From NCBI GenBank assembly GCA_965224085.1, contig CBDCYI010000005.1, positions 1,792,001 through 1,856,000 on the forward strand: a stretch of DNA of 64,000 bases, given 5' to 3'. The notes under the pieces were generated by a model. The model saw only the letters and a list, made by a program, of their open reading frames with translations, was not told where the DNA came from and made no database searches. Source of the DNA: Candidatus Marinacidobacterales bacterium (GTDB lineage Bacteria; Acidobacteriota; Vicinamibacteria; Marinacidobacterales; SMYC01). The position numbers and the translations under genes were made by a program. Shown here piece after piece: positions 1,632 to 59,518 of the stretch (its first letter is position 1; every line of letters begins with the position of its first letter).

Positions 1632-3416
1632 ATGGTGGAAACCAACAACGCAACGCAAAGCCTCGTCGAAGGAGGTGACGGGGAGCAAATCGAAGATTTC
1701 ATTCCCGCCGCGGAATACGAAAAGCTTTTGGACGCCTACAACAGCAACATCACCGAGGGCGAAGTCGTCTCGGGCAAAGTGCTGCAGGTTTCGGACAGTG
1801 AAGTGGTCGTCGATGTCGGCTACAAGTCCGAAGGCATGATCAACGTCAACGAGTTCCGGGACGAGACCGGAGCGATCACGGTAAAACCCGGTGACACCGT
1901 CGACGTTCTTCTGGAAAAGGCCGAAGACAAGAACGGCTATCTCGTGCTCTCGCGCGAGAAAGCCGAGAAGATGAAAGTCTGGGACGTCATCGAAGAGGCC
2001 TATAACACCAAAGCGATCGTCAAAGGGCGTGTCATCGAGCGCATCAAAGGCGGCCTCGCCGTCGATATCGGCGTGCGTGCGTTCTTGCCCGGATCTCAAG
2101 TGGATGTGCGCCCGGTACGTAATCTCGACAGCCTAAAAGGGCAAGAGCTCGAGATGCGGGTCATCAAAGTCAATAAGAAGCGCGGCAACATAGTTCTTTC
2201 CCGCAAAGTCGTGCTCGAAGAAGGTCTCACCGAGCGGAAGTCCGAAACGCTCGACGCGCTCGAAGAGGGCCGTGTCTTTCGCGGGGTTGTCAAGAACCTT
2301 ACGGATTACGGCGCTTTCATTGATCTCGGCGGCATCGACGGCCTTCTCCACATCACCGACATGTCCTTCGGGCGTATCCAGCACCCGTCGGAGCTGTTCA
2401 ACGTGGGCGACCAAACCGAGGTCGTCGTACTGAAGTTCGACCGCGAGCAAGAGCGTGTCTCGCTCGGCTTCAAACAACTCTCGGCCGACCCTTGGGAATC
2501 GGCGCAGTCTCGCTTTCCCACCGGGGAGCGCGTGAAAGGCAAAGTCGTCAGCCTCACCGATTACGGCGCTTTCGTCGAGCTCGAGCCAGGCGTCGAGGGC
2601 CTCATCCACGTCTCCGAGATGTCGTGGAGCAAGCGCGTGAAGCACCCTTCGAAAGTACTCACGGTCGGCGACGAAATCGAAGCCATGGTTCTCCAAGTCG
2701 ACAGCCAAGAGCGCCGCATTAGCCTTGGTCTCAAACAGATCGAGCCGAACCCGTGGCAGCAGCTCGCGGAAAAATATCAAACAGGTGCGCGCATCGAGGG
2801 CAAAGTACGAAACCTCACCGATTTCGGCGCCTTTGTCGAAGTGGCGGATGGTATCGACGGCCTCATCCACATCTCTGACATGAGCTGGAACAAGCGCGTG
2901 AGCCATCCCTCGGAAGTTCTCAAAAAGGGTGACACGGTCGACGCCCTCGTTCTGAACATCGACGCCGAGAACCAGCGCCTTTCGCTCGGTTTGAAGCAGA
3001 TGGGCGAGGACACGTGGGAAGAGTTCTTCAACCGTCATCAAGAAGGCGATGTCGTGGACGGCAAAGTGGTCCGGTTCACGAATTTCGGAGCCTTCATCGA
3101 GATCGAGGAAGGGATCGAAGGTCTCTTGCACGTCTCGGAAGTCGAGGACGAGCGCGTCGAACAAGCCGAGGACAAGCTCGTGGTCGGCGACTCCTACCGC
3201 ATGAAGATCATCAAGATGTCGCAGCAGGAGCGCAAGATCGGGCTCTCGATTCGAGCGGTCAACGTGGAAGACTACGAAGCGCATTACTCGAGCCAAGGCT
3301 CTCCCGATGCCACCTTGGGAGACGTCGCGGATTTCGGGGCGGACTGGGGCTCGAGCTCTCGAGCCAATCCCGAGACCGACGCGGCGGACAAGACGGAGAG
3401 CGAGTCGGAAGGATAG
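1632..3416 (+). CDS. rpsA: 30S ribosomal protein S1
   Basis: six S1 repeats (DYGAFIDLGGIDGLLHITDMS etc.); cmk-rpsA-ihfB synteny. Confidence 0.98.
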   Translation: MVETNNATQSLVEGGDGEQIEDFIPAAEYEKLLDAYNSNITEGEVVSGKVLQVSDSEVVVDVGYKSEGMINVNEFRDETGAITVKPGDTVDVLLEKAEDKNGYLVLSREKAEKMKVWDVIEEAYNTKAIVKGRVIERIKGGLAVDIGVRAFLPGSQVDVRPVRNLDSLKGQELEMRVIKVNKKRGNIVLSRKVVLEEGLTERKSETLDALEEGRVFRGVVKNLTDYGAFIDLGGIDGLLHITDMSFGRIQHPSELFNVGDQTEVVVLKFDREQERVSLGFKQLSADPWESAQSRFPTGERVKGKVVSLTDYGAFVELEPGVEGLIHVSEMSWSKRVKHPSKVLTVGDEIEAMVLQVDSQERRISLGLKQIEPNPWQQLAEKYQTGARIEGKVRNLTDFGAFVEVADGIDGLIHISDMSWNKRVSHPSEVLKKGDTVDALVLNIDAENQRLSLGLKQMGEDTWEEFFNRHQEGDVVDGKVVRFTNFGAFIEIEEGIEGLLHVSEVEDERVEQAEDKLVVGDSYRMKIIKMSQQERKIGLSIRAVNVEDYEAHYSSQGSPDATLGDVADFGADWGSSSRANPETDAADKTESESEG

Positions 3417-50126: not shown

Positions 50127-50751
50127 TCCGCTAATAAACCCGCCGCCTCTGGCGGCGTGACCCGAAGAGCATCGAGCGATCCGGCGTGTGCTAGGTTCCC
50201 CCTCCGGGAAGACCCTGTGGGGCCTCCGAAAGGAGAACCTGCATGCACGAATGGAAAAGCCTGTCGCAAGTGCGATGGGAATGCAAGTACCACGTGGTGA
50301 TCATCCCCAAGTATCGTAGAAGGGTGTTATATGGGGACCTTCGGCGTCGCGTGGGGCGAATTCTTCGAGAGCTTTGTGAGCAGAGAGGAGTAGAACTGAT
50401 AGAAGGCAACGCGCAACCGGACCACATCCACCTGTGTATGAGCATCCCTCCCAAGTACAGCGTATCTCACACGATCGGTTTTCTGAAAGGGAAGAGTGCG
50501 GTACGCATCCACCGAGAATTGCTGAAAGAACGTCGTATGACGGGCTTGCATTTTTGGGCGAAGGGGTACTGTGTGAGTACGGTTGGGACGAGGAGCGAAT
50601 AAGAAAGTACATCCGGGAGCAAGAAAAGCTTGAGTCTCGCCAAGGTGATCTCGACCTGAGTTAACGAGAGACGGCCCCAAGCCTTCCCAACGTCATCGGC
50701 CCCCTCGGGGGGGCCTTCCTAAACCCACGCCCTATGGGCGTGGTCGGTTAG
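50127..50751 (+). mobile_element. IS200/IS605-family tnpA-only element (625 bp)
   Basis: inserted after TTAG and ends in TTAG; subterminal hairpins CGCCGC-CTCTG-GCGGCG and CCACGCCC-TAT-GGGCGTGG, each preceded by AAAC. Confidence 0.92.
50243..50664 (+). pseudogene. tnpA: HUH Y1 transposase TnpA, frameshifted near 50586
   Basis: CKYHVVIIPKYRR, DHIH, LKGKS, FWAKGYCVSTVG; the catalytic YIREQ helix lies in another frame. Confidence 0.88.
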
Positions 50752-50811: not shown

Positions 50812-52176
50812 ATGCGAAAAACGATCAACCCACAACCAAGCCTTCGCGAGCCCTGGCTGGAGCTGGAGCACGCACGCGAGCTCGAAACGATATCATCGCT
50901 GCTCGATGCCCATCCTAAGCTCAATGAGCTGGTACTGCAAGACCTGAGGTCGGTCACCCCATCGGCAGGGAGCGATGTTGGTCGTGGGGGAATGAGCGCG
51001 GAGCAGGTTCTCCGGGCGTTGTTGGTCAAGCAGCTGAATCAGTTCACCTATCGGGAGCTGGCGTTTCACTTGGCAGACTCTCGAAGCTATCGGACGTTTT
51101 GCCAGCTCGGCATCATAGAGCCGAGCCCGTCGAAGTCGACCCTAGCAGCAAACATCAAAGCCGTGAAGTTCGAAACGCTGGAGAAAATCAACCGAGAGTT
51201 GGTGAGTGTTGCCGAGAAGACCGCGATCGAAAAAGGAAGAAAAGTACGAGTGGACTGCACGGTAGTGGAGTCGAATATTCATTCTCCTACGGACTCCGAG
51301 CTTCTTTATGACTGCGTCCGAGTTCTCACTCGCCTCATGTGCCGAACTCGCGAACTGCTGGGTACAGTAGTGGTCTTCGGCAATCGAACGCGTCGAGCGA
51401 AGAGACGTCGACTGGGAGTTCTAAACGCGAAGGATAAGGAACAAAGGCGTCGCGTCTATCGAGATCTACTGAAGGTGTCGGAAGAAACCTATCGCTCCGC
51501 TCAACGCGTTGCAGACCAGTTGGACGAGTCCGGCTTGACCGAGCCGGTGAAGCGAGCGAGTGCGGAGAAGATCGCCGCGGATTTTAAGCACTTTCTCGTC
51601 CTCACCGAAAAAGTCATCAACCAAACTCGGCGTAGAGTGATTGATGAAGAGCGTGTGCCTGCGGAGGAAAAGGTCGTTTCGATCTTCGAAGAACACACCG
51701 ACATTATTCGCAAAGACCGGCGCGAGACTCTCTACGGTCACAAGGTGTGTTTGACTGGTGGCTCGTCCTCGATGATTTTGGATTGCGTGATCTTGGATGG
51801 GAATCCGTCCGATTCAACTCTCGCGGAAACCATGATCGACCGTCAAGTCGAACTCTACGAACGGGCCCCGCGCCAGGTTGCCTACGATGGCGCGTTTTCT
51901 TCAAAGGCAAACTTGGAAGCCATCAAAGGCAAGGGAGTTGAAGATGTTGCCTTTACCAAGGCTCACTTCGCGGTGACCGATATGGTCAAGAGTTCCTGGG
52001 TCTATCAACGCCTACGGCGATTTCGCTGCGGAATCGAAGGCGTCATTTCGTTCTTGAAACGAGTCTTTGGTCTCGACCGATGCACATGGCGCTCATTGCC
52101 TTCTTTCAAATCCTACGTATGGAGTTCCATCATCACCTGCAACCTGTTGGTAATGGCAAGGCACCTATTACGATAA
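50812..52176 (+). CDS. DDE transposase, copy 2
   Basis: protein identical to 10947..12311. Confidence 0.95.
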   Translation: MRKTINPQPSLREPWLELEHARELETISSLLDAHPKLNELVLQDLRSVTPSAGSDVGRGGMSAEQVLRALLVKQLNQFTYRELAFHLADSRSYRTFCQLGIIEPSPSKSTLAANIKAVKFETLEKINRELVSVAEKTAIEKGRKVRVDCTVVESNIHSPTDSELLYDCVRVLTRLMCRTRELLGTVVVFGNRTRRAKRRRLGVLNAKDKEQRRRVYRDLLKVSEETYRSAQRVADQLDESGLTEPVKRASAEKIAADFKHFLVLTEKVINQTRRRVIDEERVPAEEKVVSIFEEHTDIIRKDRRETLYGHKVCLTGGSSSMILDCVILDGNPSDSTLAETMIDRQVELYERAPRQVAYDGAFSSKANLEAIKGKGVEDVAFTKAHFAVTDMVKSSWVYQRLRRFRCGIEGVISFLKRVFGLDRCTWRSLPSFKSYVWSSIITCNLLVMARHLLR

Positions 52177-52356: not shown

Positions 52357-54040
52357 GTACCCGTCCTGACAGGTGTAAGAGGTTGAGAAAAAAGGGGTAA
52401 TCGCAAATTTAGGGCTAGCCTTCTGAGGGAGTGTCGTTTAGTATCGAGTCGACAAAAACGCAGATTCTAAACGACTTAACTCCAAAGGAGACCAGCCCTA
52501 AATGCGAAAAACGATCAACCCACAACCAAGCCTTCGCGAGCCCTGGCTGGAGCTGGAGCACGCACGCGAGCTCGAAACGATATCATCGCTGCTCGATGCC
52601 CATCCTAAGCTGAATGAGCTGGTACTGCAAGACCTGAGGTCGGTCACCCCATCGGCAGGGAGCGATGTTGGTCGTGGGGGAATGAGCGCGGAGCAGGTTC
52701 TCCGGGCGTTGTTGGTCAAGCAGCTGAATCAGTTCACCTATCGGGAGCTGGCGTTTCACTTGGCAGACTCTCGAAGCTATCGGACGTTTTGCCAGCTCGG
52801 CATCATAGAGCCGAGCCCGTCGAAGTCGACCCTAGCAGCAAACATCAAAGCCGTGAAGTTCGAAACGCTGGAGAAAATCAACCGAGAGTTGGTGAGTGTT
52901 GCCGAGAAGACCGCGATCGAAAAAGGAAGAAAAGTACGAGTGGACTGCACGGTAGTGGAGTCGAATATTCATTCTCCTACGGACTCCGAGCTTCTTTATG
53001 ACTGCGTCCGAGTTCTCACTCGCCTCATGTGCCGAACTCGCGAACTGCTGGGTACAGTAGTGGTCTTCGGCAATCGAACGCGTCGAGCGAAGAGACGTCG
53101 ACTGGGAGTTCTAAACGCGAAGGATAAGGAACAAAGGCGTCGCGTCTATCGAGATCTACTGAAGGTGTCGGAAGAAACCTATCGCTCCGCTCAACGCGTT
53201 GCAGACCAGTTGGACGAGTCCGGCTTGACCGAGCCGGTGAAGCGAGCGAGTGCGGAGAAGATCGCCGCGGATTTTAAGCACTTTCTCGTCCTCACCGAAA
53301 AAGTCATCAACCAAACTCGGCGTAGAGTGATTGATGAAGAGCGTGTGCCTGCGGAGGAAAAGGTCGTTTCGATCTTCGAAGAACACACCGACATTATTCG
53401 CAAAGACCGGCGCGAGACTCTCTACGGTCACAAGGTGTGTTTGACTGGTGGCTCGTCCTCGATGATTTTGGATTGCGTGATCTTGGATGGGAATCCGTCC
53501 GATTCAACTCTCGCGGAAACCATGATCGACCGTCAAGTCGAACTCTACGAACGGGCCCCGCGCCAGGTTGCCTACGATGGCGCGTTTTCTTCAAAGGCAA
53601 ACTTGGAAGCCATCAAAGGCAAGGGAGTTGAAGATGTTGCCTTTACCAAGGCTCACTTCGCGGTGACCGATATGGTCAAGAGTTCCTGGGTCTATCAACG
53701 CCTACGGCGATTTCGCTGCGGAATCGAAGGCGTCATTTCGTTCTTGAAACGAGTCTTTGGTCTCGACCGATGCACATGGCGCTCATTGCCTTCTTTCAAA
53801 TCCTACGTATGGAGTTCCATCATCACCTGCAACCTGTTGGTAATGGCAAGGCACCTATTACGATAATAATGATTACTCTTACTGCGTTTATAGCCATGGA
53901 TTGCTGACGATTCGCCTCTCGTTTCGTCCAAGATTTTCATTCGCTTCCGAGCCTACGAGGTGCCGACTGAAAACGTATAATACCCACATCTTCGATAGGC
54001 CTCTCGTACACCACAAGTTATGGTGTTTCTGGACAGGAAC
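52357..54040 (+). mobile_element. ISNCY/IS5-like element, copy 3 (1684 bp, tandem to copy 2)
   Basis: same ends; TAACTA at 52351-52356 and 54041-54046. Confidence 0.95.
52502..53866 (+). CDS. DDE transposase, copy 3
   Basis: protein identical to 10947..12311. Confidence 0.95.
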   Translation: MRKTINPQPSLREPWLELEHARELETISSLLDAHPKLNELVLQDLRSVTPSAGSDVGRGGMSAEQVLRALLVKQLNQFTYRELAFHLADSRSYRTFCQLGIIEPSPSKSTLAANIKAVKFETLEKINRELVSVAEKTAIEKGRKVRVDCTVVESNIHSPTDSELLYDCVRVLTRLMCRTRELLGTVVVFGNRTRRAKRRRLGVLNAKDKEQRRRVYRDLLKVSEETYRSAQRVADQLDESGLTEPVKRASAEKIAADFKHFLVLTEKVINQTRRRVIDEERVPAEEKVVSIFEEHTDIIRKDRRETLYGHKVCLTGGSSSMILDCVILDGNPSDSTLAETMIDRQVELYERAPRQVAYDGAFSSKANLEAIKGKGVEDVAFTKAHFAVTDMVKSSWVYQRLRRFRCGIEGVISFLKRVFGLDRCTWRSLPSFKSYVWSSIITCNLLVMARHLLR

Positions 54041-54370: not shown

Positions 54371-56212
54371 CTACTCGACCGTGACCGACTTCGCGAGGTT
54401 TCTCGGCTGGTCCACGTCGCAGCCGCGACGTACGGCGATGTGATACGCGAGCAATTGGAGCGGCACGACGCTCACCATCGGCGAGATCGTGTCCGGATGC
54501 TGTGGGATTCGAATGACGTGGTCCCTATCGTCGTCCAGTACGGGGAGTAAGCGATCGTCGCCCTCGGTAATGAGCGCGATGATGCGGGCTCCGCGCGCTT
54601 TAGCCTCCTGGATGTTGCTCGCGATCTTGTCGTAGAGAGGGTTGTCGAGCGCGAGCGCGACGAGCGGCATACGGTCGTCGATGAGTGCTATCGGACCGTG
54701 CTTCATCTCGCCCGCCGGGTAGCCTTCGGCGTGGATATAAGAAAGCTCTTTGAGCTTGAGCGCACCTTCGAGTGCGATCGGGTAGAGATGGCCACGGCCG
54801 AGAAAGAGGAAGTTCCCTACGAGATAGAACTCGCGCGCAACATTCATGAGATCATCCGTGAGCTCGAGCGCCTGCTCCATGATGTGCGGTGTACGCGCGA
54901 GGTCCGCCAGGCGCTCGCGCGCCGCGTCGCGGTCCAGCCGTCCGAGCCGTTGCGCGAGGTGGATTGCGAGGAGATAGAGCGAGACGACCTGGGACGTGAA
55001 CGTCTTCGTCGCCGCCACGCCGATCTCCGGACCGGCATGGGTATAGAGCGTATCGTCGCAAAGCCGTGTAGCCATCGAGCCCATGGCGTTGCAGATGGCG
55101 AGGGTCTTAGCACCCGACTCCTTCGCGGTCTTGAGCGCCGCTAGAGTATCGGCGGTTTCGCCGGACTGCGTGATCCCAATTACGAGCTGATCCTCTCCGA
55201 GGATCGGGTCGCGGTAGCGAAACTCCGATGCAACGTCTACGTCGACTGGGATGCGGGCGAGCCCCTCGATATAGAATTTTCCCACCTGTGCTGCGAGCCA
55301 GCTCGTGCCGCAGGCCGCGATCGAGATGCGGCTCAACTTCGTGACGAAAGTGTCTTCGAGCTCGACTTCACTCAAGTGGACGAGCCCGGAATCGAGCGAG
55401 TAGCGGCCCAAAAGCGTGTCGCGGACGGCGCGGGGCTGCTCGAAAATCTCTTTGAGCATGAAGTGCGTGTAGCCTTGCTTTTCGACTTGAACCGGATCCC
55501 AATTAATCCGCTGAGGCTCTCGCTTCTGCTCGCGTCCGTTCTTGTCGACGACGGTGACCTCGCCCCGGTTCAATATCGCGACATCGCCATCGTCGAGAAA
55601 CACGGCCGAGCGCGTGTGGCTCAAAAAGGCCGGGACATCCGAGGCGATGAAAGACTCGTCTTCCCCGATGCCGAGCACGAGCGGCGGGCCGTAGCGCGCG
55701 CCGACAAGTACGTCCGGCTGTTCTGCCGTCAACGCAACGAAGGCGAAAACACCATCGAGCTCTTCGAGCGAGAGCTGTACCGCTTGGGCGAGATCGCCAT
55801 CGAAATGCTTTTCTATTGTGTGTGAGATGATCTCGGTGTCGGTCTCGGTCACGAATCTGTGACCTTGTTCCACGAGCTCTTGCTTGAGGGCGAGATAGTT
55901 CTCGATGATGCCGTTATGCACGACGACGATCGATCCCGTGCAATCGCGGTGCGGGTGCGCGTTCTCCTCGTTCGGCCGGCCATGCGTCGCCCAGCGCGTG
56001 TGACCGAGGCCGTAGGATCCATTCAATTTGCTATGGTCGAGCTGCCGCGCGAGGTTGTCGAGCTTCCCCTCGGAGCGAAGCACCTCGAGCCCTCGGGACC
56101 CCACGACCGCGATTCCTGCGGAGTCGTAGCCGCGATACTCCAAAGAGCGGAGACCTGCGAGTAGCATTTCGCTCGCGGGCCGCTCGCCCATATAACCGAT
56201 AATGCCGCACAT
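54371..56212 (-). CDS. glmS: glutamine-fructose-6-phosphate aminotransferase
   Basis: [42 protein letters not shown]. Confidence 0.98.
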
Positions 56213-56215
56213 TGC

Positions 56216-57367
56216 TCAGCGTTCCCTTCGTTCCTTTCGTCCTGAGCTTTTTGGTCGGGCCCAGCCTTTTTTGTTGACTTGCCGGCTTCTCGCGAGCGCG
56301 AGCGCGTACGCGGGAACGTCCTTCACGACGCAGGAGCCGGCGGCGACGAAAGCGCCTTTTCCGACGCGCACGGGTGCGACGAGCTGCACGTCGCTTCCCA
56401 CGAAAGCGCCGTCGCCAATAACGGTACGGCTCTTCACCTTGCCGTCGTAGTTGCACGTGATCGTTCCCGCGCCGAGATTGGCGCCGCGTCCGACAGTCGC
56501 GTCCCCGACATAGCTCAAGTGGGACGCTTTGGCGCCGGCTGCGATCCGAGAGTTCTTGAGTTCGACGAAGTTTCCGATACGCGCCGCATCGCCGACGTCC
56601 GACGCCGGACGGATATGCGCGAAGGGGCCGATGGAAGCGTCCTTGCCGATACGGCTTTCGCGGACGAAGCAGTGATCGAGAATCTTCGTTCCCGCTCCAA
56701 TCGATGCGTCGATGAGGTGGCTGAAACTTCCAATGATACAACCCTTCGCGATGCGAGAGTCGCCCTCAATGATCACCCATGGCGAAAGCACTGTGCCCGC
56801 GCCGACGGAGATCTCGGGGTCGACATAGACGCTCGACGGATCCGGGACGAGGACGCCGCGCCGCATGAGGCTCTCGACTTTGCGCCGGCGCAGAACAATG
56901 TGGGCTTGGCTCCAAGCCTCTGCATTCTCGACGCGTAGCAAATCGTCGTCGGTCGCGGGGAAGACAGGAGCAGGTCGAAGGAGCTTCGCGAGCTCGTGAA
57001 GCGTCCGCGCGCGAACGCCCTTCATCGCCTGCGCTTCGGCTGCGAGAACCACAGGAAGACCGCCACCGCTTGCGAAAAGAGCGGCGGGAGCGCTGGCACT
57101 CGCTTTGCTCGCTTTCAGAAGCCGCTTCAGCGCGCTCGCTTCGAAGCAAGGGAGCTCGGCGGGAAGGCAAACAATCGTGTCGCGCATCGCTGCGAGCTCG
57201 CGTGTCGTCGCCGTGTCGACGCCGTCCGGAGCGCTCTTCCCGATCCATAGGACACGGCGCGGCTTGAGAGCTCGGGCCGCGAGCAGCGTGCGCTCCCAAA
57301 CGGCCGTCCCGAGTAACGGCGTGAAAGCGAATCGACTCTTGCCTGGCCAGAGCGCGATGATTGTCAT
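56216..57367 (-). CDS. glmU: GlmU-like protein: intact acetyltransferase beta-helix, degenerate uridyltransferase domain
   Basis: IGPFAHIRP, GNFVELK, ASHLSYVGDA, GAGTITCNYDG present; LAAGxGTRM, GD and EYYLTD absent. Confidence 0.85.
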   Translation of the reverse strand: MTIIALWPGKSRFAFTPLLGTAVWERTLLAARALKPRRVLWIGKSAPDGVDTATTRELAAMRDTIVCLPAELPCFEASALKRLLKASKASASAPAALFASGGGLPVVLAAEAQAMKGVRARTLHELAKLLRPAPVFPATDDDLLRVENAEAWSQAHIVLRRRKVESLMRRGVLVPDPSSVYVDPEISVGAGTVLSPWVIIEGDSRIAKGCIIGSFSHLIDASIGAGTKILDHCFVRESRIGKDASIGPFAHIRPASDVGDAARIGNFVELKNSRIAAGAKASHLSYVGDATVGRGANLGAGTITCNYDGKVKSRTVIGDGAFVGSDVQLVAPVRVGKGAFVAAGSCVVKDVPAYALALARSRQVNKKGWARPKSSGRKERRER

Positions 57368-57371
57368 GGCG

Positions 57372-58391
57372 TCAAGGGGTAGTGTTAGTGTGCGCCATTC
57401 CCGCATGCGCGCGATGAAATATGGACTGAAGCGCGCCCGCGGTCTTCACGCCGTCGTGCCGCACGACGGGTCCAGGCTGGAGCAAGTCTTCGCTGACGAT
57501 CGGGCAAGGAAGCCTGTCGCCTCTCGAATGACGAACCGGCTCCGCGCCGTCTTCACGATAGTGCGCAAGTACCTTGGCGGGAACAGGAGCCGAATTTCTA
57601 AGCACGTGCGAAATCTCGAGCCCGGGCGCGTGCTCTAAAAGGGCATCGATGTGGTCGGCGACCGTGTAGCCGGTCGTCTCGCCCGGCTGGGTCATGACAT
57701 TCGCGAGATAGACGACGTCGGCGCCGGAGCTCGCGATGGCCTCGACCACGCCGGGAACGAGCAAATTTGGTACGAGGCTCGTATAGAGCGAACCAGGTCC
57801 TATCAATACGAGGTCTGCTTGGGAAAGTGCGTTGAGGGCGCCTCGCGGTGGCCGGCAGTCCGCTGGCTGGAGATGGACGCGTCGCACCCGCTGTGGCGAG
57901 CCCGTGATATTTGTCTCGCCCCGCACCAACGAGCCGTCGTCGAGCTCTGCGCGAAGCGAGACACGCTGGTTCGTCGAAGGAAAAATGCGACCACGTATGG
58001 CCAGGACTTGGCTCGCCGCCCGCACGGCTTCGCTGAAGTCGCCGGTCACGCCGGTAAGAGCGGTCAGGAAAAGATTCCCGAAGTTGTGCCCCGCTAAGTC
58101 TCCCGAGCCTTCGAATCGATACTGAAAAAGGGAAGACAAGAGAGACTCGTCGGCGGAGAGAGACACGAGGCAGTTGCGAATGTCGCCGGGCGGCAACATC
58201 TGAAACTCGTCGCGTAGACGTCCAGAGCTGCCGCCGTCATCCGTGACCGTGACGAGCGCGGAGAGGTCGGCGAAATAGACGTCGTCCTTGGAAGGTTCCG
58301 GCGGAGGGTCCATGAACTGCTTGAGCCCGGCGAGAAGCGCGGACAGACCGGTGCCTCCGCCAATGGCGAAGACCCTAAGGCCGTAAATCAC
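57372..58391 (-). CDS. yvcK: YvcK/GlmR family UDP-GlcNAc-binding protein
   Basis: IGGGTGL, VTVTDDGGSSGRLR, PPGDIRNCL, HNFGNL, GPGSLYTS, RHD; GTG start inferred. Confidence 0.93.
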   Translation of the reverse strand: MIYGLRVFAIGGGTGLSALLAGLKQFMDPPPEPSKDDVYFADLSALVTVTDDGGSSGRLRDEFQMLPPGDIRNCLVSLSADESLLSSLFQYRFEGSGDLAGHNFGNLFLTALTGVTGDFSEAVRAASQVLAIRGRIFPSTNQRVSLRAELDDGSLVRGETNITGSPQRVRRVHLQPADCRPPRGALNALSQADLVLIGPGSLYTSLVPNLLVPGVVEAIASSGADVVYLANVMTQPGETTGYTVADHIDALLEHAPGLEISHVLRNSAPVPAKVLAHYREDGAEPVRHSRGDRLPCPIVSEDLLQPGPVVRHDGVKTAGALQSIFHRAHAGMAHTNTTP

Positions 58392-58404
58392 GAGACCGCG
58401 GCTT

Positions 58405-58964
58405 CTACGTGTCGGCGAGTAGCGCTGCCACCTCGGCCTCGCGGCGAACGCTATTGAAGTCCTCGTCGCCTCTCGCGTGGAATAGCGAGGTCGGGTCGCT
58501 GTTGATGGCTTGTTGGAGATATTTCGCGCTTGCCGGAGCGTCGCCCGCCAGCGCGTGCGCCGCCGCCAGGCAGTATTGAACATGAGAGCTCTTGGGCTCG
58601 AGCTCGATGGCCTTCGACAATTGTTTGATGGCTTGTGCGGCATCGCCTTCATTGAGATATCGCCTTCATTGAGATACATGACGCCGAAATTGACCATTTC
58701 CTCGGCCGACTTGGGACGGCGCTGCGGCGTGAGCTGCCGCACGCAAATCTTGAGATAGGAGTCGACTCGTTCGAGCAGCTCCTTTTCCTCGGGGTAGGTG
58801 GCGGTCAAGCGCTCGAGCTGTTCTTTCGCGCGTTGCGCATCTCCCTTGTAGAGTGCTTTGACGGCTTTCTCTAGCCCGTCAACGGCCTTGTTGTACTTCT
58901 CGTTTGAACCGCCCCCCTTCTTCTTGCTCTTTGCGGCCTTGGAGCGCGTCGTTTTCTTCGCCAA
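58405..58964 (-). pseudogene. TPR protein frameshifted by a 17-bp tandem duplication
   Basis: removing one repeat unit joins YLNEGDAAQAIKQLSKAIELEP...DEDFNSVR in one frame. Confidence 0.85.
58642..58675. repeat. perfect 17-bp tandem duplication
   Basis: ATCGCCTTCATTGAGAT x2. Confidence 0.95.
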
Positions 58965-59068
58965 TGCAACCTCCTTTGAAACTCTAGCGATAGCGTCCGA
59001 CCGGGCACCGGGAATCGAGACGCGGCCGTCGCTGGGACACTCGTTGGTTGGAATACCAAATTATAGAA

Positions 59069-59518
59069 TCAGTTAGGGTCCCGGATCAACTTGAGCCGCT
59101 CGCGTGTGTCCTCCTCGAGGAGCGCATCGGGTGGTACACCCCGATCGCGCGCTCTTTCAAGGAGTTCCGTCGTCTTCATGCCAATGGCCCGGATGGCTTC
59201 GGGGCTTCGTCGCTCGCCTTCGAGAAGGAAGCGAACACCCTGGATACGGGCGCCCGCGTCGACGAGAAAATCGAGCGCATAGGTGATGCCTCTCGCCGTC
59301 AACGCGACGCCGGCCTCCGCCCCGGTCAAAATATTGTTGGCGGAGCCAGCGACGACGCTAGCCATCAGTCGCTTCGCCGTGTCGGTGTCGACGACGACGC
59401 CGATGGCGCATGGTGCGAAGAGCTCGAAGTCAACGTCGTAGATAGCGTCGGGAGGCACTTCACGAAAAGACGTCGTCTCTCGGAGAGCTTCGAGCGGAAG
59501 GATTTCTTCAACGTCCAT
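59069..59518 (-). CDS. stand-alone C-terminal fragment of a Leu/Phe/Val dehydrogenase NAD-binding domain
   Basis: FAPCAIG, VAGSANNIL, GITYALDFLVDAGARI. Confidence 0.65.
   Translation of the reverse strand: MDVEEILPLEALRETTSFREVPPDAIYDVDFELFAPCAIGVVVDTDTAKRLMASVVAGSANNILTGAEAGVALTARGITYALDFLVDAGARIQGVRFLLEGERRSPEAIRAIGMKTTELLERARDRGVPPDALLEEDTRERLKLIRDPN

Follow-up and report, generated by a model that had tools for sequence, protein, structure and literature searches.

Within a 64,000-nucleotide stretch of DNA from a Candidatus Marinacidobacterales bacterium (Acidobacteriota; assembly GCA_965224085.1, contig CBDCYI010000005.1, positions 1,792,001 to 1,856,000; hereafter the window), a yvcK/glmR-glmU-glmS gene cluster encodes a GlmU homologue, here called GlmU*, that has a complete acetyltransferase half and a degenerate uridyltransferase half. 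In the explanation that we favour, the cluster would be a glmR(yvcK)-glmU-glmS operon of the ordinary acidobacterial kind whose GlmU has turned into a monofunctional acetyltransferase, and the N-domain of GlmU* would be a shortened, catalytically dead nucleotidyltransferase (NTase) fold under purifying selection. The N-acetylglucosamine 1-phosphate (GlcNAc-1-P) uridyltransferase step that leads to UDP-GlcNAc (uridine diphosphate N-acetylglucosamine) would then be supplied in trans by a 382-amino-acid (382-aa) protein encoded elsewhere in the same genome, and two distant paralogues would share the pathway, one domain being live and the other dead in each. As in Firmicutes, YvcK would be a GlmR-type partner of GlmS that senses UDP-GlcNAc, with no more than an accessory part as a uridyltransferase. 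On balance, and with modest confidence, we prefer this full model, with the 382-aa protein as the main uridyltransferase of the type of ST0452 from Sulfolobus tokodaii and YvcK as a GlmR-type regulator or accessory enzyme.

To our knowledge, GlmU has been treated as an essential and universally bifunctional enzyme and, as such, as an antibiotic target. GlmU* would show how a domain that has lost catalysis can be kept under selection in nature, and the 382-aa protein is a candidate, open to testing, for a bacterial GlcNAc-1-P uridyltransferase of the ST0452 type. Both proteins risk being annotated as bifunctional GlmU, and one public source already gives that name to relatives of the 382-aa protein. 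Among the nearest homologues of a neighbouring-pathway protein, the public labels are Acidobacteria or Vicinamibacteria.

Domain state and distribution of GlmU*

An initial annotation of the window had described the GlmU homologue as a 383-aa open reading frame (ORF) with a complete beta-helix and a short N-domain devoid of uridyltransferase motifs, and profile and alignment comparisons bear this description out. Against the family model TIGR01173, GlmU* scores 288.6 bits (cut-off 366.85), with only profile positions 222-450 matched, and Pfam and NCBIfam scans return Hexapep matches from Pfam but neither a Pfam NTP_transferase nor an NCBIfam NTase match for the N-domain. GlmU chains in the Protein Data Bank (PDB) align from about residue 133-141 of GlmU* onward, which corresponds to about residue 213-221 of the chains (E 8e-57); this offset indicates that the N-terminal part is about 80 residues short, with some 140 residues where canonical GlmU has about 220.

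We compared an alignment of 30 GlmU* orthologues (A1) with one of 13 canonical acidobacterial GlmUs (A2), profile against profile. The two align with probability 100, which makes the N-terminal part of GlmU* a homologue of the GlmU N-domain, and the alignment pairs LLGxPVW with GGKPLL, PAELPC with SGDVPL, and LRVEN with LGxNT. Both the base-binding QxxQxGTGHA loop and the sugar lobe (PTGYGR...EINSGIY...EYYLTD) of canonical GlmU fall opposite gaps in GlmU*, and the residues invariant in A2 (G12, R16, K23, Q71, Q74, G76, T77, D101, E153, N168, E194 and N226) are gapped or variable there. The full uridyltransferase signature (LAAGxGTR, Lys, QxxQxGTGHA, GDxP, the EYYLTD lobe and GxN) is invariant in the 13 canonical enzymes; in the 30 GlmU* sequences it is absent, gapped or variable. 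Among these 30 orthologues no column is invariant over residues 1-175, and the near-invariant residues of the N-terminal part are G20, A30, L83, W152 and A155. In the C-domain, 50 columns are invariant, among them H283 of SHLSYVGDA and the block NLGAGTITCNYDG; the acetyltransferase motifs HLSY[VL]GD and GAGTITCNYDG are present, with H283, Y286, G288, D289, N297, G299-G301 and T304-G309 all invariant. GlmU* is very probably a monofunctional glucosamine 1-phosphate (GlcN-1-P) N-acetyltransferase, and the earlier proposal that GlmU has been kept for this one activity is almost certain to hold. In comparison with the bifunctional GlmU of E. coli and S. pneumoniae (TIGR01173), GlmU* shares the three-part architecture, the acetyltransferase motifs and a gene position directly 5' of glmS, but differs in its shorter N-domain, which carries no uridyltransferase signature residue, and in a score below the family cut-off.

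The AF2 model of GlmU*, built from A1, has an overall predicted local distance difference test score (pLDDT) of 80, with block means of about 85-94 over residues 1-160, and places a helix at residues 149-169, in the arm that joins the two domains. Searched as a whole (residues 1-363), the model finds GlmU as its top match in both Foldseek and VIA (1g95, Z 23.5, 333 residues aligned), and residues 1-162 alone find IspD-type NTases (Z 17.5, root-mean-square deviation 2.2-2.4 A, 153-155 residues aligned). The architecture of NTase fold, helical arm and beta-helix is thus predicted to be retained. Over ten within-genus pairs, the ratio of nonsynonymous to synonymous substitution rates (dN/dS) lies at 0.15-0.44 in the N-domain, compared with 0.06-0.16 in the C-domain; the N-domain is thus under relaxed, yet clearly purifying, selection. 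We reject recent pseudogenisation of the N-domain in view of its order-wide loss and of dN/dS values below 0.45. These values suggest that the N-domain may be kept for a structural or regulatory role. Co-folding of GlmU* (A1) with YvcK (alignment A4) gave a score of 0.00 against a mark of 0.32, a result that speaks neither for nor against binding, and a word-based search with N-domain residues 1-165 returned four genus-level clusters only and is uninformative on the wider spread of the domain.

The distribution was followed in an order sample of 41 genomes, including the window genome (G000), which fall into families f1, f2 and f3; in a class sample of 91 genomes, of which 31 belong to the order and 60 to other orders; and in a phylum sample of 121 genomes. 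Order-sample counts (GlmU*, the 382-aa protein, yvcK and PF01704) include the unpublished genome G027, and phylum-sample counts the unpublished G063 and G088; sequences of these three genomes were left unused. GlmU* was found in 40 of the 41 order-sample genomes, including G000, and was not found in G039, which is 91% complete. No second GlmU-like match better than E 8.8e-8 occurs in any of the 41, and a search of the window genome for another, full-length glmU, a check proposed with the initial annotation, found none. In the class sample, TIGR01173 is matched above its cut-off in 0/31 genomes of the order versus 51/60 genomes of other orders, and 30 of the 31 have a match to the C-terminal part only (C-only), with no match in G039; canonical GlmU is present in 94 of the 121 genomes of the phylum sample. 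Loss of the GlmU N-domain is old and order-wide, in agreement with the earlier view that the erosion is not recent. The window genome also contains glmM, murA and two lpxA genes, which indicates that UDP-GlcNAc is required. As there is no canonical glmU elsewhere in this genome and GlmU* would be limited to acetyl transfer, the uridyltransferase step must be supplied non-orthologously, and the idea of a split, non-orthologous UDP-GlcNAc pathway stands.

In other orders of the class, independent losses of the N-domain of GlmU seem to have taken place, and some of the C-only GlmUs there are open frames of about 237-299 aa (loci L163-L167). Elsewhere in the phylum sample, GlmU is encoded by two separate genes in G048, G097, G109, G121, G133, G145 and G157, the pieces covering profile positions 2 to about 265-333 and about 198-231 to 452 and lying at different genome sites.

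A candidate uridyltransferase encoded in trans

A stand-alone NTP_transferase had been the other object to be sought in the window genome, and the search returned six matches: RmlA, GalU, GlgC, a ManC-like protein, a 155-aa MurU-like frame and the 382-aa protein, which combines an NTase domain with a left-handed beta-helix (NTase-LbH). For RmlA, GalU and GlgC, the scores exceed the cut-offs of equivalog models with other substrates. The 382-aa protein matches PF00483 with 92.7 bits, and its best PDB sequence match is ST0452 (5z09 and 2ggo; E 3e-30, full length), which also gives the best full-length structural match when 17 orthologues are used to model the protein (Z 27.9, 347 residues aligned). 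Across these 17 orthologues, G9, S11, R13, K23, Q77, G82, T83, D104 and D105 of the NTase domain are invariant, as are E148, K149, P150, G162, Y164, E184, E186, W216 and D217. No histidine is invariant in the beta-helix of the 17, and where ST0452 reads PHLSYVGDS the 382-aa protein reads GAGATVLDS; with the histidine motif missing, acetyltransferase activity is unlikely. Live NTase motifs next to a beta-helix without this histidine make the protein look like a mirror image of GlmU*. ST0452 itself (2ggo, 5z09, 5z0a; TIGR03992) is reported to have both activities. The 382-aa protein resembles it in NTase plus beta-helix layout and in NTase motifs, but differs in that identity is only about 24%, the TIGR03992 cut-off is not reached and the HLSYVGD histidine is lacking.

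Orthologues of the 382-aa protein (E 2.9e-67 or better) occur in 37 of the 41 order-sample genomes, including G000. G018 has fragments of it and a split yvcK as well, a combination that hints at frameshifts from assembly, and no orthologue was found in G011 (75% complete) or G031 (73%). In the class sample the protein is present in 31/31 genomes of the order versus 0/60 others, a pattern that may reflect one or a few events as kin are not independent; in the phylum sample it is present in one of 120 others, G051, which is without a GlmU match. Within the class, presence of the protein coincides exactly with that of the degenerate GlmU. From the closest relative, this phyletic pattern and elimination of the other NTases, we infer that the substrate of the 382-aa protein is GlcNAc-1-P.

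Several observations weigh against this assignment. The top NCBIfam model of the 382-aa protein, TIGR03992 (Arch_glmU), is matched with 236.8 bits, below its cut-off of 292.1. When the N-domain fold is compared alone, RmlA, GalU and GlmU tie to about 2 Z units, with ST0452 level as well, and the sugar specificity therefore does not follow from structure. The neighbouring genes, GNAT in f1 and LptF/LptG with a tRNA synthetase in f3, are not pathway-specific, and an orthologue was not found, even by profile search, in G029, which is 96% complete. In eight of the 60 other-order genomes (G098, G165, G166, G181, G187, G202, G207 and G211) a C-only GlmU occurs without a 382-aa orthologue, and yvcK was not found in four of five such genomes checked and was present in one; other solutions must therefore exist. 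A ManC-like NTase-LbH paralogue, which could provide one of them, is encoded in the window genome and is the second match in most relatives, and the YvcK of the order has a mean column identity of 73%, keeps its pair of consecutive aspartates (DD) and is encoded tightly packed against glmU*. The genome searches, finally, scored no more than 16-21 of the first-look candidates per genome, and weak matches could be missed.

Two features of the surroundings of the 382-aa gene may be added. The 155-aa open frame lies about 12 kb from it (G000:C5:1019725-1020108; L005), covers only positions 2-122 of the 226 of MurU (N-acetylmuramate-1-P uridylyltransferase) and is possibly a truncated gene. At the f3 loci L141-L147, a fused LptF/LptG-type lipopolysaccharide export permease gene adjoins the 382-aa gene, whose start overlaps with a second, unannotated gene (about 300 aa).

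YvcK, rival readings and published routes

It is rather unlikely that one of the other NTases (the ManC-like protein, GalU or RmlA) supplies UDP-GlcNAc by relaxed specificity while the 382-aa protein activates another sugar. The presence of the ManC-like paralogue and the inability of fold comparison to separate specificities would allow for this, as would five of the other-order genomes with a C-only GlmU, which have no 382-aa orthologue and no N-type match beyond a similarly weak one (68-75 bits). However, it is the 382-aa protein, and not these NTases, that is limited to lineages in which the N-domain of GlmU was lost, and the equivalog assignments of RmlA, GalU and GlgC point to other substrates.

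A yvcK gene usually neighbours rapZ (yvcJ) and whiA, and the GlmR of B. subtilis binds UDP-GlcNAc through Y265 and R301. The window YvcK belongs to the same TIGR01826 family (340.1 bits, cut-off 196; PF01933, 342.8 bits) and has the DD motif of GlmR/YvcK from B. subtilis and L. monocytogenes. It is unlike the Firmicutes proteins in that here, and widely in Acidobacteriota, its gene lies with glmU-glmS and not with rapZ/whiA; in the window genome a rapZ-like gene is on another contig (C11:1319088), not beside yvcK, and whiA was not searched for. The motif VTVTDDGGSSG is present in 17 of 19 YvcK sequences of the order, and the DDGGSSG core with its DD pair (D51, D52) in all 19.

The initial annotation had proposed that YvcK took over as the main GlcNAc-1-P uridyltransferase beside an acetyltransferase-only GlmU, and this we now regard as distinctly unlikely. 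The idea draws on biochemistry, since purified GlmR from Listeria, Bacillus and Staphylococcus converts UTP and GlcNAc-1-P to UDP-GlcNAc in the part of that report available to us (PMC10128056). The consecutive aspartates are described as catalytic in L. monocytogenes (D40/D41) and B. subtilis (D38/D39) in the available parts of two reports (PMC10128056, PMC13046274), and Bacillus D38A/D39A mutants fail to complement, again in the accessible part of the source (PMC13046274). The invariance of the DD pair in the order agrees with such a takeover, as do the yvcK-glmU*-glmS order kept at 13/15 f1 and 6/6 f2 loci and the presence of yvcK in G029, which has no 382-aa orthologue. The distribution of yvcK speaks against it: the gene was found in 17/18 f1 and 8/8 f2 genomes of the order sample but in 0/14 f3 genomes, which carry the same kind of degenerate GlmU. 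At the locus of G007 (f1, 84% complete), glmU* directly follows a small TPR-like gene, and yvcK is absent from between the two. The closed genome G002 (9.2 Mb) belongs to the window's genus; there an in-frame deletion of about 153 codons has removed the DD motif (the VTVTDDGGSSG segment) from yvcK, and the TPR-like gene, glmU*, glmS and the stand-alone NTase are all intact. The four C-only-GlmU genomes of other orders in which yvcK was not found add to these cases. We propose that YvcK is dispensable in parts of the order; it may still be an accessory uridyltransferase, as in Listeria and Bacillus.

Adjacency, too, argues against the takeover. Genes around GlmU C-domains were inspected at 80 loci from many phyla, as the search patterns derived from A1 capture the universal C-domain. 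At 16 of these loci yvcK lies in the flank, directly 5' in 15 (gaps of -4 to 257 bp, counted from first-start-codon calls) and 2.4 kb off in L077. All 15 GlmUs scanned (from 14 of the adjacent loci and L077, with L103 left out) are canonical, with TIGR01173 scores of 499-584 bits and a visible LAAGxGTR motif. At least 14 loci of other Acidobacteriota therefore have the gene directly 5' of a canonical glmU, contrary to the earlier impression that its position beside glmU-glmS is unusual. The adjacency is not specific to the degenerate form, nor is it tied across relatives to N-domain decay, a connection that had been suggested as a check, and it is more simply read as older than that decay. A functional link of the window YvcK to GlmS and UDP-GlcNAc is plausible given the shared operon, and the common yvcK-glmU-glmS linkage in Acidobacteriota lends independent support to the GlmR-GlmS/UDP-GlcNAc link outside Firmicutes. 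In family f3, glmU* at seven of nine loci (L043-L051) adjoins a gene whose only resemblance is to the SIS half at the C-terminal end of GlmS (about 28-32% identity); full glmS does not adjoin glmU* at those seven, and there is no yvcK nearby.

We consider it improbable that the dead N-domain acts as a module for docking or allosteric control that ties the acetyltransferase to YvcK, to the stand-alone NTase or to both, with YvcK as a condition-dependent and at times principal uridyltransferase in f1 and f2, and with YvcK swapped in f3 for a NagU-like enzyme. Were this true, UDP-GlcNAc would be made by a metabolon of a half-dead enzyme and a CofD-family protein. That the short N-domain still carries out uridyl transfer through a rebuilt active site is hardly credible: its fold is retained under purifying selection, but the base-binding loop and sugar-binding lobe are deleted, no polar residue is invariant over positions 1-175 of the 30 orthologues, and the P-loop equivalent varies freely (WPGKSR, WPQRGN, STQPNP, YPEDPA).

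For comparison with known alternatives to the ST0452-like route that we favour, we looked for PF01704 (UDPGP), the family in which we would expect to find eukaryote-type UDP-sugar pyrophosphorylases, NagU among them. A PF01704 protein was found in none of 19 f1 genomes, including G000, and in all 14 f3 genomes, each of which also has the 382-aa protein; G029 is the sole genome of f1 and f2 with a PF01704 gene, and there the gene is split over two frames. In the portion accessible to us, a June 2026 preprint reports that S. aureus makes most of its UDP-GlcNAc via the eukaryote-like NagU, that GlmU is truncated or split in many NagU-bearing bacteria and that alternative UDP-GlcNAc routes are 'not rare' (Fong et al., bioRxiv 10.64898/2026.06.23.733835). 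Family f3 fits this picture of NagU with an impaired GlmU. As far as that portion of the preprint goes, NagU systems resemble the window in having a separately encoded uridyltransferase and a GlmU that is impaired, truncated or limited to acetyl transfer (10.64898/2026.06.23.733835). They are unlike it in that the candidate here is an NTase-LbH protein of bacterial/archaeal type and GlmU* keeps its dead N-domain. The window pairing most likely represents a second way of splitting the UDP-GlcNAc pathway, distinct from the NagU route and fixed across one order of Acidobacteriota, and as such a variant of the recently described alternatives. No description of a GlmU* plus ST0452-like pairing, or of bacterial ST0452 homologues, was found in the literature, supplements excluded; these, the NagU preprint's extended data among them, may list members of the order.

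Layout of the gene cluster and its surroundings

The ORF list places the small TPR-like gene, yvcK, glmU* and glmS head to tail on the minus strand (Table 1). Four bases separate the yvcK stop from the glmU* ATG and three the glmU* stop from the glmS ATG, as the initial annotation had stated and as can be read from the sequence.

Table 1. Features of the gene cluster in the window and of related loci. Plain coordinates count from the first nucleotide of the window.
Feature	Position	Strand	Remarks
glmS, glutamine--fructose-6-phosphate aminotransferase, 613 aa	54371-56212	-	last gene of the cluster
GlmU homologue (GlmU*), 383 aa	56216-57367	-	start at the ATG common to orthologues
GlmU* C-terminal left-handed beta-helix, residues ~171-383 and stop	56216-56857	-	GlcN-1-P N-acetyltransferase domain
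GlmU* long helical arm, residues ~141-170	56858-56947	-	joins both domains; alignable to the arm of GlmU
GlmU* degenerate N-domain, residues 1-140	56948-57367	-	nucleotidyltransferase fold without catalytic motifs
yvcK/glmR, CofD-family UDP-GlcNAc-binding protein, 339 aa	57372-58391	-	GTG start; TIGR01826, PF01933
Small TPR-like gene	58405-58964	-	conserved 5' of yvcK in family f1; frameshifted here
17-bp tandem duplication (TATCTCAATGAAGGCGA x2)	58643-58676	-	cause of the TPR-like gene frameshift; read from sequence
Promoter-like site, TTGATC-18-TATAAT	59060-59089	-	5' of the TPR-like gene and cluster; consensus match only
382-aa NTase-LbH protein	G000:C5:1031719-1032864		~760 kb from the window
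ManC-like NTase-LbH paralogue	C11:1457658		window genome
Deleted-yvcK locus L026	G002:C1:8858035-8862165		yvcK region ~2642-3181

The glmS product matches TIGR01135 with 811 bits (cut-off 418) and consists of a GATase and two SIS domains. For GlmU*, an alternative reading of 396 aa is possible from an upstream ATG at 57406, in the window genome only. TPR-like protein ORFs are found 5' of yvcK across the f1 loci; in the window, a tblastn search with the intact G002 orthologue returns the gene in two parts, each in another frame. Past the frameshift, the reading frame runs on without a stop into yvcK and forms a 530-aa ORF (57372-58964), from which a fusion of the N-terminal fragment with YvcK could be translated. 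The promoter-like site upstream has 10 of 12 consensus matches; the region has two such sites versus 1.3 expected from shuffles, which makes the promoter evidence weak.

Just downstream of glmS, two tandem ORFs on the plus strand (50812-52176 and 52502-53866) encode identical 454-aa proteins and are apparently two copies of one insertion sequence. They are adjoined by a 119-aa ORF (50243-50602, plus strand), which presumably encodes a protein resembling an IS200/IS605-type transposase.

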